Below, in pieces: positions 12,890-38,294 of a stretch of DNA of 64,000 nt. The translations under genes and the position numbers were made by a program. Positions within the stretch are counted from its first letter, which is position 1, and each line of letters begins with the position of its first letter. Location: contig CAZFMF010000011.1 of the NCBI GenBank assembly GCA_964519985.1, positions 6,695-70,694 of the forward strand, given 5' to 3'. The notes beneath the pieces were generated by a model. The model was not told the DNA's origin. It saw only the letters and a list, made by a program, of their open reading frames with translations, and made no database searches. This DNA is from an uncultured Pseudobdellovibrionaceae bacterium (GTDB lineage Bacteria > Bdellovibrionota > FAC87 > UBA2466).

Positions 12890-13834
12890 ATGATTATCGC
12901 GGTAAGAAAACTGCTCTTAGGGATCGCAATTGCCTTAGCCGGGACTGCCGACGCGGTCGTTCCGGGGACGAGTTTCCCCATCGCATGGACCAGCGAACCG
13001 GGTCAATACGGCCAGGTCTACAAGCCCTGGGGAGGCGGCCCCCTTCGACTCTCCCCTCCCGGCTTTTCTCTACGCGGTTTGACCGGAATTTCTTTTCCTC
13101 TAACCGACGAGGGTCAGGAAATTTTGACCGAAGTCCTTGATGCCCGCAGTGATGAACCGCGTAAAGACTACCTTGTCCCGCTGACTGATGTTTCGTTCAG
13201 CGAAGCCGAAACCGCCGGATGGCTGCAACCGGCCTCCTTTACCGGGCGCACGCGCGCCGTCGAAAAACCGGAAGGTTACTCGGTTGAAATTCAACTGGAA
13301 GTTTCCGTGGTACAGGCGGGATTGTTCCCCGCCTATCTGAAATCCGATGGCGGAAAACCCGACCAATTTGCCTATCACTATCGACGCTCGTATGTCTGGC
13401 AAGACGTGAACGAGATTCGCCGGCTAGGCCACCCGAAGTTAGTCGCCTGGCGCCTCGCGGCTTCCTATCCCACCGCCGCTATCGAACTCGCGCACGACTC
13501 GGACGGATACACTTATTTGATTCCGGAACAATTGGTTCAACGACCGGACCGCGATATTCCGATTCTAAAACTCCCAAAGGTGGCATTGGTTTTCCCCGAA
13601 AGTGAGTCGGTTTTTCAAAACCTCCTGTTATCCCCGACCCGCGGCCAAATACTCCCCACTCGAATTCAGGCCTATTCTAAATTCATCATTGCCTCTTTCT
13701 CCCCGAGCAGCACCGAACGCACACAAATCATCGAACAAGCCGTTCACGTTTTGAAAAAGACTGCTCAAGTCATCCGCTCGTCGCACTGTCCTTTTTTACT
13801 CACTCAGCCCTATATCGATCGGCACCTTGAATAG
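12890..13834 (+). CDS. Secreted hypothetical protein
   Basis: Signal peptide MIIAVRKLLLGIAIALAGTADA. 314 aa. No known motif. Confidence 0.4.
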   Translation: MIIAVRKLLLGIAIALAGTADAVVPGTSFPIAWTSEPGQYGQVYKPWGGGPLRLSPPGFSLRGLTGISFPLTDEGQEILTEVLDARSDEPRKDYLVPLTDVSFSEAETAGWLQPASFTGRTRAVEKPEGYSVEIQLEVSVVQAGLFPAYLKSDGGKPDQFAYHYRRSYVWQDVNEIRRLGHPKLVAWRLAASYPTAAIELAHDSDGYTYLIPEQLVQRPDRDIPILKLPKVALVFPESESVFQNLLLSPTRGQILPTRIQAYSKFIIASFSPSSTERTQIIEQAVHVLKKTAQVIRSSHCPFLLTQPYIDRHLE

Positions 13835-13844
13835 CCGACACCGA

Positions 13845-14334
13845 ATGCCCGATATTTCCCTAATCATTATCTCAGGTGGCCAAACCGGAGTCGATCGAGC
13901 GGCGCTCGACGTAGCTGGAAATGGCGATCCCTTGTGGAGGGTGGTGCCCCCGGGGACGTCGAACCGAAGACGGACCGCTCGATCCGAAGTACCCACTAAA
14001 AGAGACACCCAGTGCGGAGTACGCTCAACGCACGCAATGGAATGTGCGGGATTCCGACGGTTCTCTCATTCTTACTCGTGGGAGGGTCTATGGTGGAACG
14101 GACCTGGCCGTCACTTCCGCGTCGGAGTATTCCCGGCCGATCTTGATCATCGATCTCAATCAACCGCCGGGCGAGACCACTATTCTTCGCTGGCTAGAAC
14201 GGGAAAAGATCCGAAGCCTTGGGATCGGCGGGCCGCGAGAAGAATCGGAACCCGGAATTTACCAAGAATCCGTCGTCTTCTTGAGAAAGCTTTTCACCGC
14301 TTTTCTGGAACATCTTCCGAAAGATGTTCGCTAG
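13845..14334 (+). pseudogene. Molybdenum-cofactor-carrier-like (YpsA/SLOG, PF12694-like) protein gene, apparently frameshifted near 13915-13925
   Basis: The N-terminus in frame 0 (MPDISLIIISGGQTGVDRAALDVAGN) continues in frame +1 (..IPCGGWCPRGRRTEDGPLDPKYPLKETPSAEYAQRTQWNVRDSDGSLIL), matching the family consensus ..GGQTG.DRAALD.A...GIP.GGWCP.GR..EDG. The two halves are separate track ORFs (13827.. and 13921..). Confidence 0.55.
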
Positions 14335-14454
14335 TTGGGTCATGGAGCGATCAATGCCGATTTCCATTGGCTCGGATGGATCAGCTTTCTAAATAGAGCT
14401 TCGTCATCCGTGAAGTGGAACTGTCGGTTAGTCCCCGCGTGATGCGCAGCCGCC

Positions 14455-14470
14455 ACTCCGGCGCCGGAGT
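14455..14470. repeat. REP-like 16-bp perfect palindrome ACTCCGGCGCCGGAGT (copy 1), between convergent genes
   Basis: Exact 16-mer, with flank CGCC..; one of five copies in the window. Confidence 0.8.
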
Positions 14471-14485
14471 TAACACGGTGAACGG

Positions 14486-15439
14486 CTAACGACCGTTCAA
14501 CCGCGCCCGATTGTCCAACTGACGCACCCGTAAGGCGGCCGCGGAGATTTCCTGGTCCTGAAAGAATTTCAGCCCTAAGTGATTTGCCACGTCGATACCA
14601 TCGCCGGTGAGGGTCAAACCGTCGTTGACGATATACCGAACATACTCTCCGTAACGCTCACCGGTTTGGGGATTGAAGGCAATGTGCGCGCGCAGTGAAA
14701 GGCTTTCCTCCGGATCGAACGCCTTGCCATTCGACCAACGCGTCGTTACCGGCCGACCATTCGAGAGGCGCGCAGACGTCGACAAAAACACGCCCAGCGA
14801 GGTCTTCTCATTTGAGCCGTCCAGCGCCAGGAGCTCGTACGTCTCGCTACCCAAAGAATGATCGAAGCAAGTCAATCGGTACGGTCGCCGATCCAGTTTT
14901 AATATCAGAGCAGTGTCTTCCAGGACTGAACCCCGCAGCTGCTCCTGCAGCACGGCCAAGTATTCCTTAATCAACGCCTGCGATTTTTCCCGTTTTCTCG
15001 GTTCCAGATTTCTAGCACCGGTGAGAGCCGAAGCGATTTGGTCCCGCAACGGCTCGAGTTGCAACCGGGAGATATCGTAAGCCCGTTGAACCTCCGATTG
15101 GAGTAGGAATAGATCCTTCTGCTCCGGCGCGTGAGCGAGTCGAGCACGCACTCGCCACACAAAGCCCCAAGCATCAATCACCTGCTCGGGGTCTTTTAAC
15201 AACTCGCCGACGCGATATCGTCTTTCACTATCTTGGTCGTTTTCGTATTTTCGCAGCAGCGGAAGCGCCTGTTCTCCCAAATCGAAAAGGCGCTGCGAGG
15301 CACTCGCTCGTTCCTCATAGGATTCGTCGCCTAGTTTCTCAATCAGGAGTTTGATATCGGTTTCTGAAACCGGCGGATCCGCGAAAAGCGGCGGCGTGAA
15401 GCCCAATACGAGGAGCGGCAGAACCCGAAATAGACTCAT
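14486..15439 (-). CDS. Secreted hypothetical protein (HEAT/PBS-lyase-like N-terminal repeats)
   Basis: Signal peptide MSLFRVLPLLVLGFTPPLFA. 317 aa. Confidence 0.4.
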   Translation of the reverse strand: MSLFRVLPLLVLGFTPPLFADPPVSETDIKLLIEKLGDESYEERASASQRLFDLGEQALPLLRKYENDQDSERRYRVGELLKDPEQVIDAWGFVWRVRARLAHAPEQKDLFLLQSEVQRAYDISRLQLEPLRDQIASALTGARNLEPRKREKSQALIKEYLAVLQEQLRGSVLEDTALILKLDRRPYRLTCFDHSLGSETYELLALDGSNEKTSLGVFLSTSARLSNGRPVTTRWSNGKAFDPEESLSLRAHIAFNPQTGERYGEYVRYIVNDGLTLTGDGIDVANHLGLKFFQDQEISAAALRVRQLDNRARLNGR

Positions 15440-15474
15440 GGCGGCACCCTACCACAAGTGCCCACGATTTTGCC

Positions 15475-16902
15475 CTAGCGTATCCCGCTGAAACCATCGG
15501 GCGTTTTGCAGCGTGAACTTTCCAAATGGAATCCCGCCATCTCCGGGTGGTAGAACTGGCCTTCCACCTTAAAATGCCCGGGGGGAATGAGGCACACATG
15601 GGAAATCTCGATCATCTGCAATTCGAGCTCGCAATTTCGTCCCTCCTGGTTGCCTTTCTTAAAGCAGGGCGACCCCTCTAACTGAATCTCCCCCTGCAGG
15701 GCTTTTTTCATTTTCTCGGGATCGTAAGTCGTCTTGAGCAGTTTTTTCAACGTATCGCTCTTGACGAAATCCTCCAAACCCTCAACTTTCCGCGGCGCGG
15801 GTCGCGTCACCGTTTTGGGCTTTTCAAGTTCCCAGTAGTATTTTCTATCAATCGTTTTTTTGAGCTTGCGCCGGGTTCCGTCCGGAAAATCGTGAAACGA
15901 TCTTTTTGAGGTTCGAAAAGCAACATCACTTTCCAATTTTGTAATCAGAGTGGGATCGATAATGTCCTCGCTATATACCTCGGAGTTAAAGGTCTCCGGT
16001 TTGCCGCTGACAAACGAATCGTAGGCGAGGGTCCAACGGGCCGATGCCGAAACCTCTTTCTCCGTACCGCCGTCCCTTTCGCACTCCGCACGCAAATTCT
16101 TTTGTGCCCGCTCTTTACAACGTTCGTCACCGCAGCCGGCATATCGCTCCGAAACAAATTCTTCTTTTTGCCCTGTCGATCGGATGTGATCGTCGAGCTC
16201 TTGCGCATCGAGTTTCCCATCCCCGTTGCGATCGGCGCTCCGCCAACGTTTACAGTCGCCGGAGTGGGCATCACACATGAGCTTGGCAATTTCATGAAAA
16301 GCGAAGAGCTTATTGTGGGCTACCTGATGAGCCTTACACTCACCTCCTATACAAGTGGATTTATCGAGCAACGAGCAAATCCCCGCGTGGCACGTGCCGA
16401 GCCAGAACTTTGATTTTTTTGCGACCGATACAGCTTCCTGCACCCACCGATCCCCATCAAAAAACTTCAAGGGCGAGTTTTCCGAGCCCACCTGATACCG
16501 AGAGGGACTTTCGTACCCTGGACTGCCGTGCGCATTGAGCAGGCCGAGATCATTGGGGCCCATGCGCTCGCTTTTGAGAACATCGGCAACCTGACCGAGG
16601 GGGACATCGTCGTGGTGCTTGACCTCAATCCCGCACGCTTTGAAGGGATCCAGATACGAGTTCACTTGCACGGCCCGATCTCGCGTTGTCTTCGTTGTCT
16701 CGACTTCAACCGTACTGTAACCGGACCGAATGACTTCGGTCTTTACCGTAACCTGTTCCTTTCGCCCGTAAGAGAACACCACGACCTTCGGAGCGGTGCG
16801 TATCCGACGACTCTCTTCCAATGTCTCGTGAAGTGGCTTTTTGATGTCTCGGGCTATGAGGTCCGCCGCGAAAAGCAGAAGGAGAAGCAAGAGATTGCGC
16901 AT
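15475..16902 (-). CDS. Secreted hypothetical protein with an EF-hand-like calcium-binding motif
   Basis: Signal peptide MRNLLLLLLLFAADLIA. DRNGDGKLDAQELDDH matches the EF-hand loop. Cys-rich central region. Confidence 0.45.
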   Translation of the reverse strand: MRNLLLLLLLFAADLIARDIKKPLHETLEESRRIRTAPKVVVFSYGRKEQVTVKTEVIRSGYSTVEVETTKTTRDRAVQVNSYLDPFKACGIEVKHHDDVPLGQVADVLKSERMGPNDLGLLNAHGSPGYESPSRYQVGSENSPLKFFDGDRWVQEAVSVAKKSKFWLGTCHAGICSLLDKSTCIGGECKAHQVAHNKLFAFHEIAKLMCDAHSGDCKRWRSADRNGDGKLDAQELDDHIRSTGQKEEFVSERYAGCGDERCKERAQKNLRAECERDGGTEKEVSASARWTLAYDSFVSGKPETFNSEVYSEDIIDPTLITKLESDVAFRTSKRSFHDFPDGTRRKLKKTIDRKYYWELEKPKTVTRPAPRKVEGLEDFVKSDTLKKLLKTTYDPEKMKKALQGEIQLEGSPCFKKGNQEGRNCELELQMIEISHVCLIPPGHFKVEGQFYHPEMAGFHLESSRCKTPDGFSGIR

Positions 16903-17050
16903 GAAAAGAATTTTACCATAGCCGGCAATTTGGCCGGTTTGCCAACCCGACCCTCCGCCGGATCAACTTCTTGACCTGCGTGAGGCGGCCCACCCGTGCC
17001 GGCCAGACGGTAAAGGCGTATATGCGTGGTATATACATCCCTGCCTTGCA

Positions 17051-17066
17051 ACTCCGGCGCCGGAGT
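17051..17066. repeat. REP-like palindrome ACTCCGGCGCCGGAGT (copy 2), between divergent genes
   Basis: Exact 16-mer. Confidence 0.8.
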
Positions 17067-17134
17067 CGATTCCAATTGGCCTTGTGTGGAATCAGATCGG
17101 CTGCTAAAAGCCCCGCTGAATTCCGGAGAGAGCG

Positions 17135-17941
17135 ATGCGGGCATGCGTACCGATTTTTGTTTGGGTCCTTTCAATCAGTGGCCTGGCGCGGGCGGGCGAA
17201 AGCTCATTGCCCGCCGGAATCACTCGGGTCAATTGTGTCGTCCGACTCTTGCCGAAGGGGCTCGACTCCTACCTTCTCTCGGCAAAACTGACTGGCACAA
17301 AAGGAGAGGGAAAATTTGAAGGAACCCACCCTAGGAAATTCCGAGTTGGCTCCGCAGGAACCTTACGGCTGGAGTTGGAGGGGTTCGTGGTCGTCCGCTA
17401 CACCGATCCCGAAAATGGAAACCAACCACTGACGGTGGCAGTGGAAAGTGTGGGCGATCCCCGCCGTCGAGCCGAGCAATCGCATCCCATCGAAACCGTT
17501 TCCTTCGAGCATAGGGCGATGACTCTTCTTACGACGGAAATTGCCGTTGGCTATTCTCTAGAGTTTTCTGAACACATGAATGCCTTGCGGGAGAGCTTAG
17601 CTCGGGCTTTTGGGTATCCGAACGTCGCCGTGCCCGCCGACTTTCTGCGAGTCGATGAATCCGAAGCCACCTTCACATCACGAATGCGACCTTTGAAGAA
17701 GCTTCCCCTCCCGCGTATGGGAATTGAAGCCTACCTCGCTCGCGCACGCGACTCCGAAGCGGCCAACCAGACCCGAGGAATTCTGAGCCATTTCGCGCGG
17801 TTTTTCGCGTCGGCGGCGGATAGTGAAGTCAAATCGACGCTTTTCTACGGTATCGATGACACCATGCAGGGCAGGATTTACTTAGAGTTTCACGATGTGG
17901 GCAGCCAGAGCACGTATCAGACTTACATAGAAGTTCGCTAG
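17135..17941 (+). CDS. Secreted hypothetical protein
   Basis: Signal peptide MRACVPIFVWVLSISGLARA. 268 aa. Confidence 0.4.
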   Translation: MRACVPIFVWVLSISGLARAGESSLPAGITRVNCVVRLLPKGLDSYLLSAKLTGTKGEGKFEGTHPRKFRVGSAGTLRLELEGFVVVRYTDPENGNQPLTVAVESVGDPRRRAEQSHPIETVSFEHRAMTLLTTEIAVGYSLEFSEHMNALRESLARAFGYPNVAVPADFLRVDESEATFTSRMRPLKKLPLPRMGIEAYLARARDSEAANQTRGILSHFARFFASAADSEVKSTLFYGIDDTMQGRIYLEFHDVGSQSTYQTYIEVR

Positions 17942-17971
17942 GGGGGCGTCGGCCATCCCCGTCCAACGGCA

Positions 17972-17989
17972 GATATCGGATATCCGATC
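17972..17989. repeat. GATATCGGATATCCGATC palindromic repeat, second copy, after the gene ending at 17941
   Basis: Shares GATATCGGATATCCGAT with the tRNA-adjacent hairpin. Confidence 0.6.
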
Positions 17990-18039
17990 TCTAACCGTGA
18001 TCTACTTTCCCCTGAAAGTCCTACAGCTTAACGACTTTT

Positions 18040-21000
18040 TTGCCGATACGGAGGCAGACGGGGGCCTCTTTGTCGGCAGTTCCGAAAATCAAAACCGAGT
18101 CGCTTCCCAGCGGCCTTGAGCTGCTAGAAGCGGTTGGCTCGGGGACTTCGAGCCTGGTGTACCGCGCGCGGCGGGACGGGAAGATCTACGCCGTCAAGAT
18201 GTCGAAAACGGCGGATCCGGATGGGCGTTTGCTCAAGGGCTTTCGAACGGAAGCGACGATTCTGGCGCAGATCAATCACCCGGCGCTCGTTCAAACCCAA
18301 GAAGTCGGTAGCCACCACGGTCATCCGTACATTGTGATGGAGTACCTCGAGGGTGAGCTGCTTTCTTCGCGGTTGAAGCGGGGCAAATTGCCCGGCGATG
18401 AAATCTATACCATCGCACTGAAACTCGCCGATGTTCTGCACAGCGTTCATAGCCACGGCGTCATCCACCAAGATTTGAAGCCCGAGAATATCTACTGGAA
18501 CCCGAAAACGGGTGTTCTCAAGCTATTCGACTTTGGGCTCGTGGGAACCCAAGGGCGAAATACCGCGGGACAGTCGATCGGCACGCTCGACTACATGTCA
18601 CCGGAGCAGTTGGGGATTCTCGATCGGCCCATTGATGCCCGTTCCGATTTGTATTCCCTGGGCGTCACCTTGCTCGAGTGCGTGGCCGAGCGAATGAATG
18701 TTCCGCAGATAGCCGGTCGCTCGGTCGAAGCGCAATTTCAGTACGAACCCACCGACATTCTCCGCCTCAACGAAGAGATCAAATACGAGTTTGCCAAGAT
18801 TCTTTGCACCCTACTGAAAAAAGATCCCGACGATCGGTTTGCATCGGCGGATGAACTTTTCACCGCCATCAACCGGAAAGTTTTTCACCGGCAGGATACC
18901 CTTTCCAAGCAGGAACACCTCGTCGGAAGAGAAAGTGAAAAAGAGCTTCTCTATAAGCATTGGGAGGACTGCCTTTCCGGTCGAGGCAGTTCCATCCTCG
19001 TAGAAGGAGAAGCAGGAGCGGGCAAAAGCGCACTGGTTTCGGATCTCGTGCGGCGCGCGCAATCGGACAACACCATCTCGCTTCGGGGCAAGTGCACGCA
19101 ACGCCTTCCCTTTGCCCCGCTGCGACGCTTTTTTGCCGAAATTCAAAAGACGATCTCCCACGGGCACCCGGCGTACAGCAAACTGGGTTCGAATTTCGTG
19201 GATAAGAGCGCGAGCATCCGTCGCATTAGCCCGGCGCTTGCCGATCATTTCGGACTCGGTGAGGGAGACATCGGCGGCAACCAAGATCGATTCTTTGAAG
19301 AGATAGCCGACGTCTTCGTCATTCTCTCGAGATACCTTCCCGTCATTTTGTTCATCGACGATATTCAATGGATCGATGCCGAGACCATGCGCACCCTTGA
19401 TTGCCTGTCGCCGAAACTGGCGGAGAACCGCATTCTGCTGGTCATGACCTCCCGAAGTAGCTTCGAATATCTCGACAGTCTTCAACTTTTTGAGGAACGA
19501 TTCAAAGTTTCTCGGAAAATTAGCTTGGGCTCTCTCACGCCGCAGGAAACAAATCTCCTCGTTCAAGCTTACTCCGGCAACCAAAGCATCGAAGAACGTT
19601 TTCTCACGCATGTCCATACCAGCACGGGTGGGCTGCCCTTCTCCGTTGGCGAGCTACTACGCAATATCAGTCTGAACGGTGTCCTCGCTCCGAACTGGGG
19701 AAAGCTCGAGGTCCAATGGGATCAGCTTTACAACTTGGACTTACCCTCGGATGTCATCGAGCTCGTTCGACGCCGTATTTCGAGTCTTTCGGAAACCACG
19801 CGCGAGGTACTGTGCACGGCTTCGATTGTGGGTGTTTCTTTCAACGTTGCCTTGTTGTCGAAGGTGACCGGAAAAAAAGAGTCGGTCGTCCTCGACGCCC
19901 TCACCCAGGGCCACCTCCAGTTTCTCGTGGAGCCGACGACCGAGGGCGAATACAAGTTCATACATGACCGAGTTCATGAAGCGTTTCGGGCGCAGCTAGA
20001 GGGATCCCGAAAGCGCGAGCTACATCAAAAGATCGCGCTCACACTGCTGGAGACCCGACCCACCGCGGCCCATGAAGTGTTTTCGATGGCGGATCACTTC
20101 TGGGATGGCTACCCGGAACAAAACACCAAGGAAGCTTACGAAATAAGCGTCGCGGCGGGGAAACTCGCGAGCGAGAGCCATGCGCTGGAAAAGGCCTACG
20201 AGTATTTCCTACGGGCCGAAGGCCTGGCCGCGAAGGCGGGACTGGACCCCGTCGACCCCGAATTGATCGGCGCTATCTGCACAAAGATTGGGAAGAAAGC
20301 GGAAGCCATTGAACGCTACCAAGCGGCGATTGATCGCACCTCCTCCAAGTGGTTGCGCGCCCGCATCTTGGGAAAAATGGCGGAAACTTACGTTACAAAT
20401 CTGGAGACGGCCGAAGGGCTCAAACTCATTGAACGGGCGTTCGCGGAAATCGATCTCGTTCCCCCTCACCCCGTCCGAACGATCGTTTCGATTGTTTGGG
20501 GGGTCGTAAGAGGGCTCTTTGGTTACTGGACCGGGATCGGTTATGGCAACGCGACCGGGGAAAAACGAGAACAGCTTAAGATCATCGTCAATCTGCATGC
20601 GCAATTCGGCTTCGTGAAGTTCTTCGACCTCCAGCCGCTTTACATGGTTTACTCGGGCCTAAGAAACTTGCACAACGTCAACCGAATCGGAGACAGCGCC
20701 GAATTGGTTAATCTCTACTGCAACCTCTATCTGGCGTTCGGGATTCTTAAGATTCGCCCGTTCTACGATAGCTTTTATCGCAGAGCTCGACTCGTTGCCG
20801 AACGGCTCGCCGATCCGCAACTTATCGCCCACGTCGAAGCGTACTATGCTTTCGCCATTGTCTATGCGGGAAAGGAAGTCCAGGCCGAGAACCGCGTCCG
20901 TCAGCTTCTCCATGACTATAAAAATTCCCTGATTACCGAGGACTACGTCTATCTATGCGGTGTTTACATGTCGAGCCTCGTGGTTCGAGGGTTCCCCGAA

Positions 21001-23037
21001 AAGGCTTTGAAATGTGCGCTGAGTGGGATTGAGCACCTGTCTGCCGGTTCGCAAGGATCGGAAGAACTACGTTCTCACTACATGACCTGGTGCCAATCTT
21101 ACGCGGTGGCGAGCCTCGTCATGATGGGTCGGAGCAGCGAGGCGCAGTACTACTTAGATGTCTTGAACGCCTACTTCCGAGAACACCCGAACGATAAATA
21201 CCATCTCGGAATTCACCTCAATAATCTCATTCAGGCTCACTTGGAGCAGGGAGAATACTCGGACGCGCCGGAACGAGAATTTTCCCGGCACAACGGACTC
21301 ATTCGAGTCTTCATCCCCTTGCTCCTGCTGCACTTGCGCCATTTTTACATCGCCAAGGCCTACCTTCGCTTTAACCAAATGCATTTTGCTCGCCGCGAAA
21401 ATACGCGCGAAAAAGAAAAGGCCTTTAAGAAGGCGCTGTGGGAATTGAAACTGGCTTGCGATAACCCCATGTTTAGCTCCCACTACTACACGCTGCGAGG
21501 GGCCTACCTGGCCTATAAGGGGAAGAATCGGCGAGCGCTGCGCTCCTTGAACAAAGCCGAGCGACTGGCCTTCATCTGCAATAATTCGACGGCACTGTAT
21601 TTTCAGCAGCTGACCAAGGCGCGGATGGAGAAGAAACAAGGAGGCGGTTCCGCAACTTCCATCGCCCAAACCGTCTACGCATTTTGCAAAAACCACGGCT
21701 GGGCGGGACGGCAATGGGAAATCGAAAAAGAGTTTGCCGATGTGCGCCTCGGCACAGGCACCGGCACGGAACCGGCGCAGCAAAGGGGCCGCCCTTCCGA
21801 CGAGGTCAATCAGTCTCAAGTCCAGGAAATGGATGCGTTGCTTACGATCAACCTCGCCTTGGCGAGTGCCCGTAATGATTCCGAGCGAGGGCAACTCGTT
21901 TTGGATAAAGTGATGCATGCCATTGGGGCGGAACGCGGAGCGTTCTTTCTCTGGGACGACGCCTCCAATCGCCTAAGCTTCTCGCTCGGCCAATCCAGCG
22001 ATGGAAAGTCATTCAATGAACTCAAGGGCTACAGCAGTACCGTGGTCGATAAAGTCTTCCGCACGCAACAACCCATTATCGTCAGTGGTACCGAAGAAGG
22101 CGAAGCGATGGGCAGCGCCAGCATCACGCTCTTCGACCTCCGAAGTATTATTGCCGCCCCCGTTAGCGTGAACGAGAAGCGTTTCGGAGTCATTTATCTG
22201 GATAGCCGTTTCGCCAAAGGAATTTTCAACGCCCGGGATCTCGATTTCCTGCGCGCCGTCGGTATCCAGATCGCCATTGGGATTGATAGCAATCGCAGCG
22301 CGCGCATCTCGGTGGAGAAAGTCCGCATCGAGAAAGAACTCGAATTGACCGGAGCCGTGCAACGGCTCTTAATTCCCAAATCCACCGATCTAGAAACCGA
22401 CCGCTTCCACCTGAGTTACTTTTTCCAAACCGCGAGCCAATCGGGCGGCGACTGGATCTGGTACCAGTCCGAAGAAAACGGAGACCTCACCATTCTGTTG
22501 GGGGATGTCGTGGGGCACGGTCCGGCCGCCGCCATGATCACGGCCATCGTTTCCGGTACGTACCACGCCCTCCGCGAGACCGCCGACACACCGGTGATCC
22601 TGGAGCGGATCGATCAAGTCCTAAAGGACATGATGAAGGGCGAATACTGGATTTCCCTACTCGTGGTCCGCGTGCTTAAGGACAAAATTGAAGTTTACAA
22701 CGCCGGCATGCCCTACTTCTCTTTCTTAAAGAAAGGCAAAGCGGTCGAGCAGATTGGCATTCCGTCCTGTGGGCCTCTGGGCCTGGATGTGAAGCCGGTC
22801 AAGAAAACCGAAATCCCGTTCGCAAAAGGCGACCGCTTCATGGTCTGCACCGACGGCGCCTTCGAATTCGCTCACAAAAACGGTATTTTTGGCGAACGCC
22901 GCCTCAACAAGCTCTTCTCATCGACCGCTGGTCTAGTACTGCCCGAGGCCCGGAACAAAATTGCCCAAACCGTCCTCTCCGAAATCGCGGGCCCCGTCCC
23001 TGATGACGTGGCGCTGGCGATCGTGGAAAAGAAGTAA
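18040..23037 (+). CDS. Giant multidomain Ser/Thr protein kinase (PknK-like): Hanks kinase, AAA_16/STAND ATPase, TPR/MalT-like region, GAF domain and C-terminal SpoIIE/PP2C phosphatase domain
   Basis: Kinase motifs GSGTSSLVY (Gly loop), AVK, HRDLKPEN-like HQDLKPENIY and DFGL. Walker A GEAGAGKS after the kinase. Long helical/TPR region. GAF-like segment near aa 1280-1430. PP2C/SpoIIE motifs GDVVGHGPAAAM and CTDGAFE at the C-terminus. The TTG start from the track is uncertain. Confidence 0.85.
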   Translation: MPIRRQTGASLSAVPKIKTESLPSGLELLEAVGSGTSSLVYRARRDGKIYAVKMSKTADPDGRLLKGFRTEATILAQINHPALVQTQEVGSHHGHPYIVMEYLEGELLSSRLKRGKLPGDEIYTIALKLADVLHSVHSHGVIHQDLKPENIYWNPKTGVLKLFDFGLVGTQGRNTAGQSIGTLDYMSPEQLGILDRPIDARSDLYSLGVTLLECVAERMNVPQIAGRSVEAQFQYEPTDILRLNEEIKYEFAKILCTLLKKDPDDRFASADELFTAINRKVFHRQDTLSKQEHLVGRESEKELLYKHWEDCLSGRGSSILVEGEAGAGKSALVSDLVRRAQSDNTISLRGKCTQRLPFAPLRRFFAEIQKTISHGHPAYSKLGSNFVDKSASIRRISPALADHFGLGEGDIGGNQDRFFEEIADVFVILSRYLPVILFIDDIQWIDAETMRTLDCLSPKLAENRILLVMTSRSSFEYLDSLQLFEERFKVSRKISLGSLTPQETNLLVQAYSGNQSIEERFLTHVHTSTGGLPFSVGELLRNISLNGVLAPNWGKLEVQWDQLYNLDLPSDVIELVRRRISSLSETTREVLCTASIVGVSFNVALLSKVTGKKESVVLDALTQGHLQFLVEPTTEGEYKFIHDRVHEAFRAQLEGSRKRELHQKIALTLLETRPTAAHEVFSMADHFWDGYPEQNTKEAYEISVAAGKLASESHALEKAYEYFLRAEGLAAKAGLDPVDPELIGAICTKIGKKAEAIERYQAAIDRTSSKWLRARILGKMAETYVTNLETAEGLKLIERAFAEIDLVPPHPVRTIVSIVWGVVRGLFGYWTGIGYGNATGEKREQLKIIVNLHAQFGFVKFFDLQPLYMVYSGLRNLHNVNRIGDSAELVNLYCNLYLAFGILKIRPFYDSFYRRARLVAERLADPQLIAHVEAYYAFAIVYAGKEVQAENRVRQLLHDYKNSLITEDYVYLCGVYMSSLVVRGFPEKALKCALSGIEHLSAGSQGSEELRSHYMTWCQSYAVASLVMMGRSSEAQYYLDVLNAYFREHPNDKYHLGIHLNNLIQAHLEQGEYSDAPEREFSRHNGLIRVFIPLLLLHLRHFYIAKAYLRFNQMHFARRENTREKEKAFKKALWELKLACDNPMFSSHYYTLRGAYLAYKGKNRRALRSLNKAERLAFICNNSTALYFQQLTKARMEKKQGGGSATSIAQTVYAFCKNHGWAGRQWEIEKEFADVRLGTGTGTEPAQQRGRPSDEVNQSQVQEMDALLTINLALASARNDSERGQLVLDKVMHAIGAERGAFFLWDDASNRLSFSLGQSSDGKSFNELKGYSSTVVDKVFRTQQPIIVSGTEEGEAMGSASITLFDLRSIIAAPVSVNEKRFGVIYLDSRFAKGIFNARDLDFLRAVGIQIAIGIDSNRSARISVEKVRIEKELELTGAVQRLLIPKSTDLETDRFHLSYFFQTASQSGGDWIWYQSEENGDLTILLGDVVGHGPAAAMITAIVSGTYHALRETADTPVILERIDQVLKDMMKGEYWISLLVVRVLKDKIEVYNAGMPYFSFLKKGKAVEQIGIPSCGPLGLDVKPVKKTEIPFAKGDRFMVCTDGAFEFAHKNGIFGERRLNKLFSSTAGLVLPEARNKIAQTVLSEIAGPVPDDVALAIVEKK

Positions 23038-23060: not shown

Positions 23061-23076
23061 ACTCCGGCGCCGGAGT
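23061..23076. repeat. REP-like palindrome ACTCCGGCGCCGGAGT (copy 3), 24 nt after the giant kinase stop
   Basis: Exact 16-mer. Confidence 0.8.
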
Positions 23077-23139: not shown

Positions 23140-23185
23140 AACTTGTCTTTGCCTTCCATTTTGAAATGGGTCATAATTGGGTCAT
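23140..23185 (+). promoter_or_regulatory. Candidate vapBC operator/promoter region with a direct repeat GGGTCAT(A/G)A x2
   Basis: AAATGGGTCATAATTGGGTCATGAAAAGG lies immediately upstream of the antitoxin start. Type II antitoxins usually autoregulate via such repeats. Confidence 0.3.
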
Positions 23186-23462
23186 GAAAAGGTCACATTC
23201 TGGCGGTGGCGAAAAAGTGAGCATTGCAAACCTCAAAGCCAAACTTGCTTACTATCTCCGCAAAGTCCGCTTGGGAGAGGAAGTCATCGTCACCGAGCAT
23301 AAGCGACCCGTCGCCAAAATAGTTCAGCTGGAGCCCGAAGGGCTAGATATCATTCGAGCCAAAGGTTCCTTCGCGGAAGTTGCGGATACAAAACTGGAAC
23401 CTCTTGACCACGAAAAAGTAGACTCCCTATCGCACCTATTGAAGGAGCGAGGTAATCGTTAA
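23184..23462 (+). CDS. vapB: Type II antitoxin, Phd/YefM family (VapB-like)
   Basis: VSIANLKAKLAYYLRKVRLGEEVIVTEHKRPVAKIV is typical of Phd/YefM. The stop overlaps the ATG of the downstream PIN gene (TAATG). Confidence 0.7.
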   Translation: MKRSHSGGGEKVSIANLKAKLAYYLRKVRLGEEVIVTEHKRPVAKIVQLEPEGLDIIRAKGSFAEVADTKLEPLDHEKVDSLSHLLKERGNR

Positions 23463-23875
23463 TGATCGCCTACATCGACTCTTCGGTGCTACTTCGAGTT
23501 ATTTTTTCTGAGTCCAACTCGCTCAAGGAGTTTAAGAAGATCAAGGCGGCAGTATCGAGCGAACTGCTACGAGTGGAGTGCATGCGCACTATCGATCGTG
23601 TCCGCGTCACTAATAAGTTTTCCGATGAAGTTTATCTAGAGTATGTCCGACGCTTCTTTCTCTTCTTGGAAAAAATCGATCTCATTCCAATTCAACGAGA
23701 AATCCTGAATCGAGCCGCACAGCCTTTTTCCACCATCTTAGGTTCCTTAGACGCCATCCACCTCGCTTCCGCGATTTTGTACCGCGAAAGATATTCCTCC
23801 CGGCTTGTTCTTACGACCCACGATAAACAGCTATTTGGAGCTGCCCTCGCGTCTGGCTTCGAGGTGCTTGGTTAA
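23462..23875 (+). CDS. vapC: Type II toxin, PIN-domain ribonuclease VapC
   Basis: PIN signature: N-terminal IAYIDSSVLL (Asp), then conserved acidic residues. 137 aa, immediately downstream of the antitoxin. Confidence 0.8.
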   Translation: MIAYIDSSVLLRVIFSESNSLKEFKKIKAAVSSELLRVECMRTIDRVRVTNKFSDEVYLEYVRRFFLFLEKIDLIPIQREILNRAAQPFSTILGSLDAIHLASAILYRERYSSRLVLTTHDKQLFGAALASGFEVLG

Positions 23876-25680: not shown

Positions 25681-25696
25681 ACTCCGGCGCCGGAGT
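25681..25696. repeat. REP-like palindrome ACTCCGGCGCCGGAGT (copy 4), 26 nt after the peptidase stop
   Basis: Exact 16-mer. Confidence 0.8.
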
Positions 25697-25866
25697 CCGA
25701 CATGGCGGTACCGAGTTCGCAGGCGCGCAAAAACCCGCCATCTAGCTATGACCGGAATATCCAGAACTAAAACCGGTTGTTCCCATTTCCTATTCATGCT
25801 ATCAACTCCTCCCCCGCAAAGCGCACCTACGGTTCTTCACTCAGTTCGGGGTTGAGGAGAGTCGGC

Positions 25867-26646
25867 ATGGTCCTAACCATATTAAGCCATCTTGCCATTC
25901 CCATTTTGGCCTTCCTTTTCGTCAATCAGTCGGCACTTGCAACGGACAAAATTGGAAAGATTGGGAGATGCACGAAACAACTGCAGAAGATGTTAGAGGA
26001 ACGTTCTGCGGATCCCCGAATGATAGAAATTCTACTCGATCTGGATCGAAGAATAGGGCGCCTGGAATCGGAGAGAGGAGATCGGACGTTGCGGCGAACA
26101 CCTCGCGGCACTCTCCCGGCCGCCCACCCGATCTATCTTGTTGAATTACTAAAAACAATGGACCCGGAAGTTCTCAAGGCCAGGATACTTGCTTATCGAA
26201 AGCCCCGAAACAGCAAGCGAGTACCGAATAATGCGCCGAGCCTGTCCCCAATAATAAATATTCGAGATCGGACAGGAGCTATCCTTCGTTTGAGCTGGCT
26301 TACCGGAGAGTGGGGTGGCGATGCCACCATAGGTGAGCAACCACTGGGATCTTTGCTCGTAGGAATCGTGAATTTTGTAGGCGAAGAGTCGAAGAACTTC
26401 GATCCCGACCTTTGGGGCACTTACGTTGGCAAAGTCGTTCTCCAACGCCACGAGGAGATGGTTTATCGCCCTATCCGACTTGGCCACGAACTCCACGAGC
26501 GCGTCGAAACGATGGCGAAAGAGCTATTGGGCGGACAGCCAGGAAGCACGCAGGAAGTGATTATCGCCTCGATTCATTTGATTTGCGATGCCTTTGGAGC
26601 GCCCCCCGCCGACGAGCTCGAGCTAGTCTCGGCTGAGGAGCCCTAA
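25867..26646 (+). CDS. Secreted hypothetical protein
   Basis: Internal ATG with GGAGA ribosome-binding site and signal-like MVLTILSHLAIPILAFLFVNQSALA. The track ORF starts at 25777. Confidence 0.35.
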   Translation: MVLTILSHLAIPILAFLFVNQSALATDKIGKIGRCTKQLQKMLEERSADPRMIEILLDLDRRIGRLESERGDRTLRRTPRGTLPAAHPIYLVELLKTMDPEVLKARILAYRKPRNSKRVPNNAPSLSPIINIRDRTGAILRLSWLTGEWGGDATIGEQPLGSLLVGIVNFVGEESKNFDPDLWGTYVGKVVLQRHEEMVYRPIRLGHELHERVETMAKELLGGQPGSTQEVIIASIHLICDAFGAPPADELELVSAEEP

Positions 26647-26671: not shown

Positions 26672-26712
26672 TCTGATATCGGATATCCGATATCGAGCCA
26701 TCCGATATCAGA
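26672..26712. repeat. Hairpin/palindromic repeat TCTGATATCGGA-TATCCGATATCGAGCCA-TCCGATATCAGA immediately 3' of tRNA-Gly
   Basis: 12-bp perfect inverted arms. The loop itself contains a GATATC-based palindrome. A related copy lies at 17972-17989. Confidence 0.7.
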
Positions 26713-28465: not shown

Positions 28466-29314
28466 TTAGCTCCGATCGAGTTCGGCGAGAATCTCCAGTA
28501 GCGCCTTCCACTGATCATCGAATGACGGAGGGTCTTCTCCTAATTCTACACTCGGCCACGCGCCTCGCAGTATCGAAAGGTCAAATCTCTTGGCTTCCGA
28601 CAAAAAATATCTAGGCACTTCCGTATTCCTCCTCTCGAATGTCATTCGTATAGCGTTGAGCAGCGATGTTCTGTCCTGGCACCGTGCAAAGAGAAGCACG
28701 AGATCATAAACATCGCGGGAGCGAGAGTTGGCCGATCCGCGTCGGTAGAGAGTCTGCAATTTTTCCGCAAACATGCTCTCCAGTGGATACACTCGCCACG
28801 ACACCGATTGACCCCGCCCCAGTATGGATTCCATAGTCTGCGACTTTGGCTTAGCTGGGAGCGCATCACCAAATCCAATATCCATCTGTATCCGAGATAG
28901 TTTTTTGACCTTACTGGCTGAAGGTTCTTCGCCGATCTGAAAGGCGACGCTGAAGCGAATTCCTTCGTAATCACCCTGGTGCTCCAGCGGTTCATTTTTC
29001 AGGTCACCGTACCAAAGTCCATCATCCAAATTTTTTGAAAGTGCCGACTCCATCAGGGCCGGAATCTTTTGCGCTGATAGCTCGTGGGCGAGGGCGTCAA
29101 CATCGCGGGTAAATCTGGGACTATCAATAAGCTTGAATAGAACAAACCCGCCTTTGAACACCAAGTGCTTGAAGAGAATGGGATGCGCTTCGATGCGGGC
29201 GATCGCCCGTTCAAGGGCAACAATGATTCTCAGCTCATTGATATCTCGAGAGGAATCCGCATCCGCAATTTTCTTGAGGGCGCTCATGACAGCCCGGCCC
29301 CTTTCCACGTTCAT
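28466..29314 (-). CDS. abiEii: Type IV toxin-antitoxin/abortive-infection toxin AbiEii-like nucleotidyltransferase (DUF1814)
   Basis: About 280 aa with the HLVFKGGFVLFKL..RFTRDVDAL region (a nucleotidyltransferase GG/DxD-like fold). The 4-nt overlap with the upstream AbiEi-like gene is the canonical abiE arrangement. Confidence 0.65.
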   Translation of the reverse strand: MNVERGRAVMSALKKIADADSSRDINELRIIVALERAIARIEAHPILFKHLVFKGGFVLFKLIDSPRFTRDVDALAHELSAQKIPALMESALSKNLDDGLWYGDLKNEPLEHQGDYEGIRFSVAFQIGEEPSASKVKKLSRIQMDIGFGDALPAKPKSQTMESILGRGQSVSWRVYPLESMFAEKLQTLYRRGSANSRSRDVYDLVLLFARCQDRTSLLNAIRMTFERRNTEVPRYFLSEAKRFDLSILRGAWPSVELGEDPPSFDDQWKALLEILAELDRS

Positions 29315-29880
29315 GCGAGGGCCTCGAGATAGGGTTGGACTCGATGGTAGACGTCTAACTCTTTCGCTACATCGGCAATACGCCCGAGATTTACGGAGCC
29401 TTTGATAGCTCTTCGTAAGGCTTCCATCGCGATATTAGTGCCGATCAGATTTCGGAACAGGATGGCATCTACCAGAGTGCGTTCGATAGAGGTTATCCAA
29501 TACTGTTTCTTTTTTTCGATTCCAATCTTCCATTGAGGGTTTCGCGTTCGCAACAGTCGAATATTGCGATGCTGTGTGCGTTTGGCAGCTTCGACCATCA
29601 GCCAAACTTTTTTCGGAATCGCGTCGGTTAAGTGGTAATGCGCTAACGCGGATACGAGGCACACGGCATTGGGACGCCCAATCTGCGCCGAGGCTGCGGC
29701 AAAGGACTCTTCTTCCGAATAATCGGCGTCGCCTGTCTGATAGAGTCCTCGGCCGACCTTACGCAGCGTTCCGTCCGTCACCATCTTCTTGAGGCAATAG
29801 AAGGTAATGCCAGCTTTTGCCGCTTCCTGGGTCGAAAATGGCCGGTTCTTGAAAGACCTTGGAATTTTTGCCTGGCCCAT
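29311..29880 (-). CDS. abiEi: AbiEi-family antitoxin/transcriptional regulator (winged-helix N-terminus plus C-terminal AbiEi_4-like domain)
   Basis: 189 aa. QEAAKAGITFYCLKKMVTDGTLRKVGRGLY is typical of the AbiEi N-terminal winged helix. It overlaps the AbiEii-like gene. Confidence 0.65.
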   Translation of the reverse strand: MGQAKIPRSFKNRPFSTQEAAKAGITFYCLKKMVTDGTLRKVGRGLYQTGDADYSEEESFAAASAQIGRPNAVCLVSALAHYHLTDAIPKKVWLMVEAAKRTQHRNIRLLRTRNPQWKIGIEKKKQYWITSIERTLVDAILFRNLIGTNIAMEALRRAIKGSVNLGRIADVAKELDVYHRVQPYLEALA

Positions 29881-31093: not shown

Positions 31094-31309
31094 ATGGGAA
31101 CAACGAGGAGGAAGGCTGGGCGTCCGAAGCGCGTTCTTCCCATGAAAATGGTTGGAATTCGACTTCAAGAATCTCTCATTGAGAGACTTAGAAGACTCGC
31201 ATCTCAGGAAGGCCTCCCGTACCAAACTTACCTCCGAAAAGTAGTCTGGGATCACGCTTTTAAGCGCGAAACTTTGATCGGCGAAACGGGCAATGGAACA
31301 AAGGCCTAA
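31094..31309 (+). CDS. CopG/ribbon-helix-helix DNA-binding protein, BrnA-antitoxin-like
   Basis: GRPKRVLPMKMVGIRLQESLIERLRRLASQEGLPYQTYLRKVV matches the BrnA (COG3514) pattern GRP...........IRLD.D.L..FK......GYQT.IN..LR. No BrnT partner was detected upstream. Confidence 0.45.
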   Translation: MGTTRRKAGRPKRVLPMKMVGIRLQESLIERLRRLASQEGLPYQTYLRKVVWDHAFKRETLIGETGNGTKA

Positions 31310-34300: not shown

Positions 34301-34817
34301 ACAGACCATTATTATAAAGGGCGTGAAATCAGAAGATCGCCTCTTCGACGAAGTCGCTCTCTTCCTTCATCGTGTCGTAGCGGACCTGCCCGAATCGAAA
34401 CAGCGTACCTTAGAACGTGTTCGACACCGCGAAGGGCTCTTCGAGGGAAAGAAAATATTGGTAGTCGATGATGACATGCGAAATGTCTTTGCGCTCCGAA
34501 GCCTTCTGCAAGGCAGAGGCTTTGAAATCTTTGCCGCTAAGACGGGTAAGGAAGCGCTGCGACACCTGGACGAACACTCGGACGTCGATATTGTCCTCAT
34601 GGATATCATGATGCCCGAAATGGACGGTTTTGAGGCCATGCGAAAAATAAGGGCCCAGGAAAAATTCATGAAACTCCCGATTATTGCCCTCACCGCGAAG
34701 GCAATGGTTGGAGACCGGGATAAATGCTTAGAGGCGGGAGCCAATGACTATCTCTCGAAGCCCATCGACGGCGAAAGTTTGCTCTCTTTGTTAAGAGTTT
34801 GGTTAACCAGAGCGTAA
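31293..34817 (+). CDS. Hybrid sensor histidine kinase: N-terminal membrane sensor domain (DUF4118/KdpD-like), PAS, GAF, long Glu/Gln-rich coiled coil, HisKA, HATPase_c and three C-terminal receiver domains
   Basis: H-box ANMSHELRTPLN. N/G boxes GTGLGLTIARELGGLLGGEI. Three REC signatures (LLIIEDDP...DAIILDLRLP, VLVVEDRK...DCMILDIKLPDFSG, ILVVDDDM...DIVLMDIMMPEMDG). Confidence 0.9.
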   Translation: MEQRPNRNKPSTSPGERLLYWHLGKYPKAVQWAVPSLLVIGALVTQHFLRPVIGERSFLLLYPTVFFSALISGSLGPGVLASFIATIGAWYFFVPTIYSFTITRVGDLFGLVTFAFTGLSFSLISGKLRSIQGAESEVAQLSAIITSSDDAIISKTLNGTILTWNPGAEKIFGYSADEMQGKSIFSIIPADKHEEERRILDRLSRGSSLVQYETTRIRKDGTLVEIASTISPIKDEKGNVIGACKIGRDVTEKKATERNIQELLNTTSVINEVYARMRGEPTTKELAENVLTYLAHSLKAHVGAFYRVNEERLIRLAGFALPHETNIPFPEMFHRGQGLLGQAVKSGEPFILATIPENYLTIRSALGETKPASLLFVPIQHEGKVIAAIEFGTLSGFAEEHRVLVKNISEIIGVGLFSADTREQLKQLLEETRAQQDELQASNEELENTTNELQTQQEELKQANEELQEQRTALEEQKESLEKTNRKAEEARSEVQRKAEALETAGKYKSEFLANMSHELRTPLNSILLLSKAMSENLEGNLNSNQLESAHTIHSSGTDLLNLINDILDLSKVEAGKLEIRISDVEISELVVALKNQFRAQMEAKDLSFEIEIAELCPEEITTDRLRLEQILKNFLSNAIKFTEKGFVKVIFHAVPHDNSSIAITVKDTGIGIPEAQRSLIFEAFEQGDNSISRRYGGTGLGLTIARELGGLLGGEIQVHSEEGKGSEFTLVLPIHFDEGRTVTAISSRAPSVDVTPSEPAPAAKVRKNGSERVDDRRKIDKGDRVLLIIEDDPHFAKILLGLCRGRGFKCLLATNGEAGLTDADEFQPDAIILDLRLPAMSGMTVLGRLKKNLRTRHIPVHVMSVEEKRNEVLQMGAVGFLSKPADKERLEDALKRIETTISTKARSVLVVEDRKVEREAILKLIGNGDVTSVGAETGEEALQLLRTRVFDCMILDIKLPDFSGFDLLDKMEKDETLSRPAVIIYTGRDLTKDEIVRLNKFSQTIIIKGVKSEDRLFDEVALFLHRVVADLPESKQRTLERVRHREGLFEGKKILVVDDDMRNVFALRSLLQGRGFEIFAAKTGKEALRHLDEHSDVDIVLMDIMMPEMDGFEAMRKIRAQEKFMKLPIIALTAKAMVGDRDKCLEAGANDYLSKPIDGESLLSLLRVWLTRA

Positions 34818-34822
34818 ACTCC

Positions 34823-35662: not shown

Positions 35663-35666
35663 TTCC

Positions 35667-37831: not shown

Positions 37832-37838
37832 GCGGCTT

Positions 37839-38294
37839 ATGAAGGTCAGCAACGAAATATTGGTCGTCGACGATAATAATGCGGATGTGAAGATCCTAAG
37901 AGACTTCTGGCCGGCGGAACTGGGAGCCTACCATTTCGTCGTAGCGGAAGACGGTGAGCAGGCACTTAACTACATTCACAAACGAGGAAGGTATTCGGGA
38001 CGAACAGCACCCTGCATCGTGTTCTTGGATCTTAACCTACCGAGAAAAAGCGGCACCGAAGTCCTGACCGAGATCAAAAAGCACCCCGAGTTCAAAAACG
38101 TCACCGTTATCGTCTTATCGGGTTCGGATGATCCAAGAGACAAAGCGCAGTGTCTCGCGCTGGGGGCCGAGCGGTTCTTCACCAAACCAAGTAATTTGGA
38201 AGGTCTCGGGGCCTTTTTTTCCGTAATGAAATCTTATCTCCGCAAGGATTGTGGAAACGAATCTGCGGGTGAGATAGGAGGAGACAAGGAATGA
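37839..38294 (+). CDS. Single-domain response regulator (CheY-like receiver)
   Basis: ILVVDDNNAD...IVFLDLNLPRKSG...VIVLSGSDDP receiver signature. Start placed at the internal ATG (MKVSNEILVVDD); the track ORF begins at 37728 and overlaps the upstream gene. Confidence 0.8.
   Translation: MKVSNEILVVDDNNADVKILRDFWPAELGAYHFVVAEDGEQALNYIHKRGRYSGRTAPCIVFLDLNLPRKSGTEVLTEIKKHPEFKNVTVIVLSGSDDPRDKAQCLALGAERFFTKPSNLEGLGAFFSVMKSYLRKDCGNESAGEIGGDKE

Follow-up and report, generated by a model that had tools for sequence, protein, structure and literature searches.

Domain fusions that place a protein kinase and a protein phosphatase in a single polypeptide raise a simple question: do the two catalytic heads oppose each other, or does the phosphatase serve as the output of something else? 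The question is posed here by a very long gene (18040 to 23037, forward strand) carried by a stretch of 64,000 nucleotides from an uncultured Pseudobdellovibrionaceae bacterium (NCBI GenBank assembly GCA_964519985.1, contig CAZFMF010000011.1, positions 6,695 to 70,694), referred to below as the window. A previous examination of this DNA, made without database searches and called here the sequence-only reading, described the product as a fusion of a Hanks-type Ser/Thr kinase, a STAND-like ATPase, a TPR/MalT-like scaffold, a GAF-like module and a SpoIIE/PP2C phosphatase. It considered the arrangement not to be a textbook one and proposed that it implies a self-contained, ligand-gated phosphorylation switch. 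The domain searches, structure models and homologue comparisons reported here confirm the domain map and lead to another view of the protein. It is a divergent but ordinary member of a large and already catalogued family, and its phosphatase is best understood as a plug-in output that the GAF domain drives through a helical linker, rather than as an antagonist dedicated to the kinase of the same chain.

Domain organization and predicted structure

The gene is one unbroken open reading frame (ORF) of 1665 codons plus the stop, as the sequence-only reading had stated. The gene, its start region and the modules of its product are listed below, with coordinates in the window, strand and description.

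18040..23037, forward: whole ORF; one gene encoding a kinase-STAND-GAF-PP2C protein, with homologues colinear end to end
18040..18159, forward: start-codon region, with candidates TTG 18040, TTG 18070 and GTG 18157
18118..18843, forward: Hanks-type Ser/Thr kinase, residues 27-268 (Pfam Pkinase, E 9e-45)
18919..19989, forward: STAND nucleotide-binding module, residues ~294-650, with an AAA_16 P-loop domain and a helical/winged-helix part
20002..21753, forward: TPR-like alpha-solenoid of ~26 helices, residues ~655-1238 (AlphaFold2 secondary structure, Foldseek TPR matches)
21889..22287, forward: GAF domain, residues 1284-1416 (Pfam GAF, GAF_2 and GAF_3, E 3e-10 to 2e-11)
22231..22371, forward: signalling linker helix of ~47 residues, 1398-1444, continuous from the last GAF helix into PP2C (AlphaFold2)
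22477..23028, forward: SpoIIE/RsbU-type PP2C (PPM) phosphatase, residues 1480-1663 (Pfam SpoIIE, E 7e-25)

The Pfam matches of all four domains exceed the gathering cut-offs, and the protein appears as a giant cytoplasmic, soluble multi-domain signalling protein. Its N-terminal domain displays all the hallmarks of Hanks-type kinases, i.e. the glycine-rich loop (GSGTSS), the VAIK lysine (AVK, K53), the alpha-C glutamate (E71), the catalytic aspartate and asparagine (H143-Q-D145 and N150 of HQDLKPEN), DFG (D164-F-G) and APE (SPE, P188-E189), together with T182; the four kinase motifs first read from the sequence (glycine loop, AVK, HQDLKPEN and DFG) are thus all found. The closest solved relatives by sequence are PknB, StkP and PknA. 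The catalytic motif is HQD, in which a glutamine replaces the arginine of HRD, and this defines a non-RD kinase; a few relatives carry HKD or HSD at this position.

The kinase is followed by a STAND module, in agreement with the P-loop (GEAGAGKS) on which this part of the fusion had originally been recognized. Pfam AAA_16 matches residues 294-466 (E 1e-21) and includes the Walker A motif (G323-x-x-G326-x-G328-K329-S330) and a Walker B motif of the form hhhhD441-D442...W444-x-D446 (ILFIDD). Further downstream, a F640-x-H642-D motif is invariant across the aligned homologues; by analogy with the STAND literature, H642 would be the winged-helix histidine that contacts the nucleotide. The AlphaFold2 model of residues 281-1270 (predicted local distance difference test, pLDDT, 87.1; predicted template-modelling score, pTM, 0.81) displays a nucleotide-binding domain of the alpha/beta type, followed by a helical/winged-helix part and a stack of about 26 helices. 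The top Foldseek matches of this model in the PDB are a STAND-TPR protein (6mfv, E 3e-12) and MalT (8bob, template-modelling (TM) score 0.65 relative to the target), and other matches include Orc1/Cdc6, plant NLRs and classical TPR proteins. The TPR/MalT-like scaffold of the sequence-only reading is therefore upheld at the level of the predicted fold, through the modelled solenoid and its 6mfv and MalT matches, but not at the level of sequence profiles, since Pfam returns no TPR match in the window protein at E<=0.1 and the solenoid is visible in the structure model only. Pfam TPR matches do occur over the solenoid region of some homologues. The solenoid is presumed to be the sensor or oligomerization arm of the STAND module.

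The C-terminal part had been singled out for domain checks, in particular the GAF region (about residues 1270-1440) and the metal-binding aspartates of the phosphatase, and both identifications hold. The GAF domain located by Pfam lies inside the predicted interval, matches in sequence the GAF domain of PDB 5w10 and is modelled by AlphaFold2 at a pLDDT of ~87. The model of residues 1251-1665 (pLDDT 86.8) shows a GAF fold, a single helix and then a PP2C fold. The phosphatase is complete: Pfam SpoIIE (PF07228) scores 88.5 bits against a cut-off of 25, and all the metal-binding motifs are present, namely GGD (D1471), GDVVGHG (D1489), TDG (D1605) and DD (D1655/D1656). Its nearest solved chains by sequence are SiaA (6k4e) and Rv1364c (3ke6). 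By structure, Foldseek places Pseudomonas aeruginosa RssB on top, along with 3pu9, SiaA (TM 0.79), RsbX, Rv1364c and SpoIIE; the TM scores to 3pu9, SiaA, RsbX and the C-terminal domain of RssB range from 0.75 to 0.79. The PstP/Stp1/tPphA group ranks below RssB, SiaA, RsbX, Rv1364c and SpoIIE. The phosphatase thus belongs to the RsbU/SpoIIE/SiaA branch and not to the PstP/Stp1 branch, which normally partners Hanks kinases.

A large and already catalogued family

The search for homologues with the same full architecture, suggested as a check of the fusion, returned many of them. A word-index search found 4577 proteins that match at E<=1e-10, and 22 of the best 120 of these combine Pkinase, AAA_16, GAF and SpoIIE. 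In an exhaustive phmmer search, residues 901-1665 were compared with 1.84 billion cluster representatives (50% identity), and 424 of these matched at E<=1e-30. Among the best 150 of these 424, at least 98 are 1600-1860 amino acids long and display a single match from the tail of the scaffold to the end of the PP2C domain. All four Pfam domains were found in each of the 28 representatives sampled, and the window protein likewise carries them in the same order in one polypeptide of the family size (~1650-1800 amino acids).

Furthermore, the layout has been recorded before. Such proteins are annotated in IMG as 'serine/threonine protein kinase / serine phosphatase RsbU', LIC12324 of Leptospira interrogans has been tabulated as 'PK, AAA_16, GAF, SpoIIE' (PMC5100919), and kinase-PP2C fusions in general, including some from Pseudomonas, were reported in 2005 (PMC1262709). 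The novelty attributed to the arrangement by the sequence-only reading was therefore overstated, given its occurrence in the 22 word-index matches, in the 98 or more phmmer representatives and in LIC12324, and the architecture would not surprise a specialist of bacterial signalling. The family includes at least about 100 clusters (50% identity) with the exact layout and thousands with the kinase-STAND-GAF part, referred to below as the chassis, and it extends over spirochaetes, myxobacteria, actinomycetes, Chloroflexota and other lineages. In the literature search, no biochemical characterization of a member with a PP2C output was found, and only a transposon-sequencing paper on Leptospira and a paper on extracellular-vesicle proteomics surfaced. 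One member does affect the fitness of Leptospira in its host: two independent transposon insertions in LIC12324 lowered fitness in hamsters (PMC5100919).

Within this family, the window protein is divergent. The closest homologue shares 36% identity with the C-terminal query and 34% with the full-length protein, and the nearest relatives (P0002, P0003 and P0123) display 33-36% identity. The reference alignment used to assess conservation contains 21 homologues of 1669-1808 amino acids that are 21-34% identical to the window protein; BLASTP coverage of the query reaches 95-99% in 19 of them, 90% in P0082 and 44% in P0089. Despite this distance, the catalytic residues do not vary in the alignment. 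This holds for K53, H143, D145, N150, D164-x-G166 and P188-E189 in the kinase, for G326, G328, K329, D441, D446 and F640-x-H642 in the ATPase, and for D1471, D1489-x-x-G-H-G, D1605-G and D1655-D1656 in the phosphatase. The catalytic residues are likewise invariant in 28 further representatives of the family. All three enzymatic modules are therefore under purifying selection, and, as judged from these alignments, the kinase, STAND, GAF and PP2C modules are intact.

Interchangeable outputs on a common chassis

The most informative property of the family is that the phosphatase is only one of several outputs. According to the Pfam architectures of the best 120 word-index matches, the same chassis bears PP2C, GGDEF, HisKA/HATPase, cyclase or Hpt outputs; the proteins that end in a diguanylate cyclase, a histidine kinase or a nucleotide cyclase include both paralogues and orthologues. 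Beyond the 22 proteins with the full PP2C layout, these matches are mostly chassis joined to GGDEF, while HisKA/HATPase is the output of about 20 (with Hpt or REC added in some) and a class III cyclase that of one. In a tree built by neighbour joining from the chassis columns of 114 full-length members, the PP2C-type proteins do not form one group and lie beside histidine-kinase and GGDEF types in several places. The junction can be located from a pair of metagenome proteins, P0010 (PP2C output, encoded at locus L085) and P0028 (histidine-kinase output). These share 57% identity over a stretch of 1448 amino acids that begins with the kinase and ends with the last GAF helix, and their homology ends directly after the GAF domain, which places the breakpoint in the linker helix. 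The sequences thus indicate that outputs have been exchanged repeatedly, with a breakpoint just after GAF.

If the phosphatase had become a dedicated partner of the kinase, some trace of it might be sought in the chassis itself. However, none of the chassis columns distinguishes PP2C-type members (at least 75% in these versus at most 35% in the others), nor does the same comparison reveal any PP2C-specific Ser/Thr column. There is therefore no sign of co-adaptation of the kinase or scaffold to the phosphatase.

The position of the breakpoint is meaningful in the light of recent work on RsbU. Activation of this phosphatase involves a helical linker that becomes an ordered coiled coil and leads to a PPM dimer in which the switch helices and the metal site are set (PMC12143880). 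The same study predicts a similar activation for GAF-, PAS-, REC- and HAMP-linked phosphatases, and proposes that sensor domains are interchangeable among PPM, histidine-kinase and GGDEF outputs by means of a shared dimeric helical linker (PMC12143880). A 47-residue helix between GAF and PP2C, as modelled here, with a swap breakpoint inside it, fits what would be expected from the RsbU-type linker model. The clean natural swaps between PP2C, histidine-kinase, GGDEF and cyclase outputs therefore bear on the proposal of a common dimeric linker for sensor-driven effectors.

Relationships with known systems

Among named proteins, LIC12324 of L. interrogans is the closest in design. Compared by its published domain list, it displays the same order of four domains and the same overall size as the window protein. 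Two spirochaete genes were used as proxies for it, one from a metagenome-assembled genome of Leptospirales (L061, 1755 amino acids) and the other from a metagenome-assembled genome of Spirochaetes (L007, 1714 amino acids). Both products carry Pkinase, AAA_16, GAF and SpoIIE, align to residues 28-1612 of the window protein and are ~24-26% identical to it.

The HstK family resembles the window protein in its Pkinase, AAA_16, helical scaffold and GAF parts, with ~85% of the query aligned at 25-32% identity, and differs in its output, which is HisKA/HATPase, GGDEF or cyclase instead of PP2C. Indeed, Pfam finds neither HisKA nor HATPase_c in the window protein. The HstK proteins were described in cyanobacteria as 'dual kinases' with the order Ser/Thr kinase, GAF and histidine kinase, and an Arthrospira protein has been described as an HstK in which an adenylate cyclase replaces the histidine kinase (PMC2176072, PMC2853384).

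With RsbU, RsbP, RsbZ, SiaA and SpoIIE, the window protein shares the fold and the metal-binding motifs of the phosphatase and, according to the monomer model, a sensor that precedes it and is connected to it by a long helix. The helix between GAF and PP2C would correspond to the coiled-coil linkers found in RsbU, RsbP and RsbZ, and RsbZ of Clostridioides difficile provides a precedent for the GAF-linker-PPM order (PMC12143880). However, these proteins are only ~200-830 amino acids long and are devoid of Hanks kinase and STAND module. In addition, RsbU-type genes usually lie beside genes encoding STAS and anti-sigma partners, whereas no such neighbours were found at the nine loci considered here (the window and eight homologue loci).

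The central part of the protein resembles MalT-clade STAND proteins by its AAA_16 P-loop, its winged-helix histidine motif and its C-terminal helical-repeat sensor arm. MalT and LAL regulators end in a DNA-binding domain, whereas the solenoid of the window protein leads into GAF and PP2C. PknK of Mycobacterium tuberculosis, which consists of a kinase and an AAA_16/MalT-like region, is not known to carry GAF or PP2C. M. tuberculosis has been listed with a 'Kinase + MalT-like domain' protein (PMC1262709). Rv1364c of M. tuberculosis and OsaC of Streptomyces coelicolor also combine a sensor with a PP2C phosphatase and with a protein kinase within a single chain. Nevertheless, their kinase is a GHKL-type, RsbW-like anti-sigma kinase and that of the window protein is of Hanks type; moreover, Rv1364c carries its own STAS substrate, whereas Pfam finds no STAS domain in the window protein. 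Membership of the TOMM kinase/cyclase fusion family (TIGR03903) was considered and rejected: the score is 234.6 bits against a cut-off of 705.75, and the best stretch (residues 289-689) corresponds to the AAA_16/helical region.

Proposed mechanism and alternative explanations

Altogether, the explanation that we hold to be somewhat more probable than all its competitors is that the STAND and GAF modules drive a plug-in PP2C output, with the kinase as a second head and a client that is not genetically linked; its uncertainty stems almost wholly from the inferred steps. The phosphatase is read as a plug-in output because the chassis carries interchangeable outputs and because no chassis position is specific to PP2C-type members. 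The STAND module would act as an ADP/ATP-controlled conformational and oligomerization switch as in MalT, with a closed ADP state and an open, oligomeric state in the presence of ATP and a signal. The GAF domain may bind a small ligand or read the state of the solenoid, and both modules would jointly set the register or the dimerization of the helical linker. The linker would in turn act on PP2C by positioning its switch helices and second metal site, and thereby turn the phosphatase on, a mechanism established for RsbU, RsbP and SpoIIE. The N-terminal kinase would be a constant second catalytic head, autophosphorylating or acting on separate targets, and the target of the phosphatase would most likely be an unlinked phospho-Ser/Thr protein and not specifically the products of its own kinase.

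Several points weigh against this explanation. Every mechanistic step would be borrowed from other families; the linker was seen as one 47-residue helix in a monomer model, only monomers having been modelled; and the chassis tree carries no support values and is indicative only. Furthermore, no STAS, anti-sigma kinase or sigma-factor gene is linked to the gene at any of the nine loci, in a scan that covered roughly the longer ORFs of the window between 0.5 and 62 kb and 6-8 kb around the gene in the eight homologue loci; one of the nine has a weak HATPase_c_2 protein upstream.

This lack of linked partners gives some room to another explanation, in which the Hanks kinase and the PP2C domain act on the same phosphosites, either of the protein itself or of a common substrate, as a ligand- and ATP-gated toggle or timer; this is close to what the sequence-only reading had put forward. 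One polypeptide carries both catalytic centres in intact and conserved form, and opposing kinase and PP2C activities have single-chain precedents in Rv1364c (3ke6) and in OsaC (mentioned in PMC12143880), to which the PP2C-kinase fusions known from Pseudomonas (PMC1262709) can be added. On the other hand, the chassis, kinase included, also bears GGDEF, histidine-kinase and cyclase outputs; it works with these other outputs and the kinase therefore needs no phosphatase partner. No chassis residue sets PP2C-type members apart, and the phosphatase falls into the RsbU/SpoIIE/SiaA type, whose known substrates are phosphorylated by GHKL-type and not by Hanks kinases. In addition, a non-RD (HQD) kinase is less likely to depend on phosphorylation of its activation loop. 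Given interchangeable outputs, a chassis without PP2C-specific columns and a phosphatase of the RsbU/SpoIIE branch, a self-contained switch with an opposing phosphatase receives no direct comparative support. That the two heads share phosphosites is thus rather unlikely, and it is equally doubtful that the STAND ATPase and the GAF ligand decide which activity, kinase or PP2C, dominates. If true, an RsbU/SpoIIE-type phosphatase would for the first time be seen to oppose a Hanks kinase.

Two explanations that give the protein a different role altogether fare less well. One of the catalytic heads might be a non-enzymatic scaffold or adaptor, i.e. a pseudokinase or a pseudo-phosphatase like RssB of Escherichia coli. 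The top structural match of the phosphatase, RssB of P. aeruginosa, points in this direction, as the PP2C domain of the RssB family serves as an adaptor, and so do the departures of the kinase from consensus (HQD for HRD and GxGxxS for GxGxxG). However, K53, E71, D145, N150 and D164 of the kinase, as well as the four or five metal-binding aspartates and the GHG motif of PP2C, are invariant in more than 45 divergent homologues, and non-RD kinases are normally active, so that a pseudo-enzyme seems quite unlikely on the evidence of the alignments. Still less probable, to the point of being hardly credible, is an anti-phage function as an Avs-like STAND protein or kinase-based defence protein of a defence and toxin-antitoxin island. 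STAND NTPases and Ser/Thr kinases do occur in defence systems, the PADLOC/NCBIfam models PD-T4-6, MADS6 and PglW match the protein, and a Phd-PIN and an AbiEii/AbiEi pair lie within 7 kb downstream. Yet these matches span the kinase domain only (residues ~11-310), and, for the two models with a curated NCBIfam cut-off, the scores are far under it (99 versus 460 bits for MADS6 and 84 versus 990 for PglW). The neighbouring ORFs have no PADLOC match, the homologues are surrounded by unrelated housekeeping or signalling genes, and the alternative outputs (GGDEF, histidine kinase and cyclase) are typical of signal transduction. Membership of the known anti-phage kinases (PD-T4-6, MADS6, PglW and MkoA) was accordingly rejected, as there is neither a full-length match nor a context of defence genes.

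Natural swaps of the output at a single junction and a virulence-linked member make the family a reasonable experimental target.

A single gene whose start is probably misannotated

The main practical yield from this window is a clear domain map and a corrected start codon. As the gene is unusually long and its contig derives from a metagenome-assembled genome, two genes might have been joined by an assembly error or a sequencing frameshift, a possibility that the sequence-only reading had raised itself. However, an identical protein was recovered from two independent assemblies, that of NCBI and the Logan assembly of SRR12808457, and it can be aligned colinearly from end to end with dozens of homologues of equal length. 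An artefact is thus effectively excluded by these comparisons, and the gene is a single, real one.

The public gene call (P0001, 1626 amino acids) starts at GTG 18157, which corresponds to codon 40. This start would cut off strand beta1 and the glycine loop of the kinase, although G33 and G35 of this loop are at least 90% conserved in the homologue alignment. It would also remove a motif located further upstream, similar to 'IPG', that matches the N-termini of the homologues in the alignment. As G33, G35 and the 'IPG'-like motif align with the N-termini of the homologues, translation must begin upstream of codon ~22; and since GTG 18157 would delete the conserved glycine loop, the public call is probably too short and the deposited annotation of the gene probably truncated. 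The only in-frame canonical starts located 5' of GTG 18157 are TTG 18040 and TTG 18070. The true start is therefore probably one of these, which would give a protein of 1665 or 1655 amino acids, respectively. A GGAGG sequence (18050-18054) and a run of G (18060-18064) precede TTG 18070. The sequence-only reading had likewise treated its TTG start as uncertain.

Genomic neighbourhood

The features that immediately flank the gene are as follows.

17971..17992, no strand: intergenic palindrome AGATATCGGATATCCGATCTCT, upstream of the gene; its second copy lies at 26674-26695
23061..23076, no strand: downstream intergenic perfect palindrome of 16 nucleotides, ACTCCGGCGCCGGAGT, 24 nucleotides past the stop
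23166-23462 and 23462-23875: Phd/YefM-type antitoxin and PIN toxin, with a 1-base overlap

The gene had been described as bracketed by REP-like (repetitive extragenic palindromic-like) palindromes. Palindromes are indeed present and repeated on both sides, but the two flanks carry different elements. The upstream palindrome, GATATCGGATATCCGAT, lies 48 nucleotides before TTG 18040 and 30 nucleotides past the preceding ORF; the window contains two copies of GATATCGGATATCCGAT(A/C)TC, each ~30 nucleotides 3' of the stop of an unannotated ORF (17135-17941 and 25777-26646). The downstream element, ACTCCGGCGCCGGAGT, has five exact copies in the window (14455-14470, 17051-17066, 23061-23076, 25681-25696 and 40279-40294), always between ORFs and with unrelated flanks, whereas 0.8 would be expected at two mismatches or fewer. 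This palindrome may represent a REP-like element, the operator of a dimeric regulator or a 6-bp hairpin with a 4-nucleotide loop. Scans for terminators and promoters around the gene gave fewer matches than shuffled controls and nothing convincing, the sole promoter-like site being located ahead of the toxin-antitoxin pair. This pair had been taken for vapBC, which is correct for the VapC-like PIN toxin but not for the antitoxin, which belongs to the Phd/YefM type.

A conserved partner gene was sought and rejected, as the eight homologue neighbourhoods have nothing in common. The 268-amino-acid ORF located upstream of the gene (17135-17941) has no Pfam or PADLOC match and is unrelated to the gene found upstream of P0006. 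It is the last of a group (12890-17941, directly upstream) that also includes ORFs of 314 (+), 317 (-) and 475 (-) amino acids, all of which, like the 268-amino-acid one (+), are without Pfam or PADLOC match, these four being consecutive; a fifth ORF of this group (189 amino acids, +) has a marginal SLOG-family match only. On the other side, an AbiEii toxin and AbiEi antitoxin pair lies at 28466-29880 (-), and small DUF4431 and DUF3892 proteins are encoded between the Phd-PIN and AbiEii/AbiEi pairs.

The remainder of the window carries two other gene groups. A block of signalling genes (31293-40228) encodes a hybrid kinase of 1174 amino acids (DUF4118-PAS-GAF-HisKA-HATPase with three receiver domains), CheR, CheB and two REC-PAS-histidine kinases; its G+C content is 0.48-0.51 versus 0.55-0.61 elsewhere, and it may be a horizontally acquired island. 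Finally, a respiratory cluster (48765-59852, -) encodes cytochrome c oxidase subunits I and II, the latter fused to cytochrome c, and includes alternative-complex-III-like genes, with a 980-amino-acid Fe-S protein and an NrfD-like membrane subunit.

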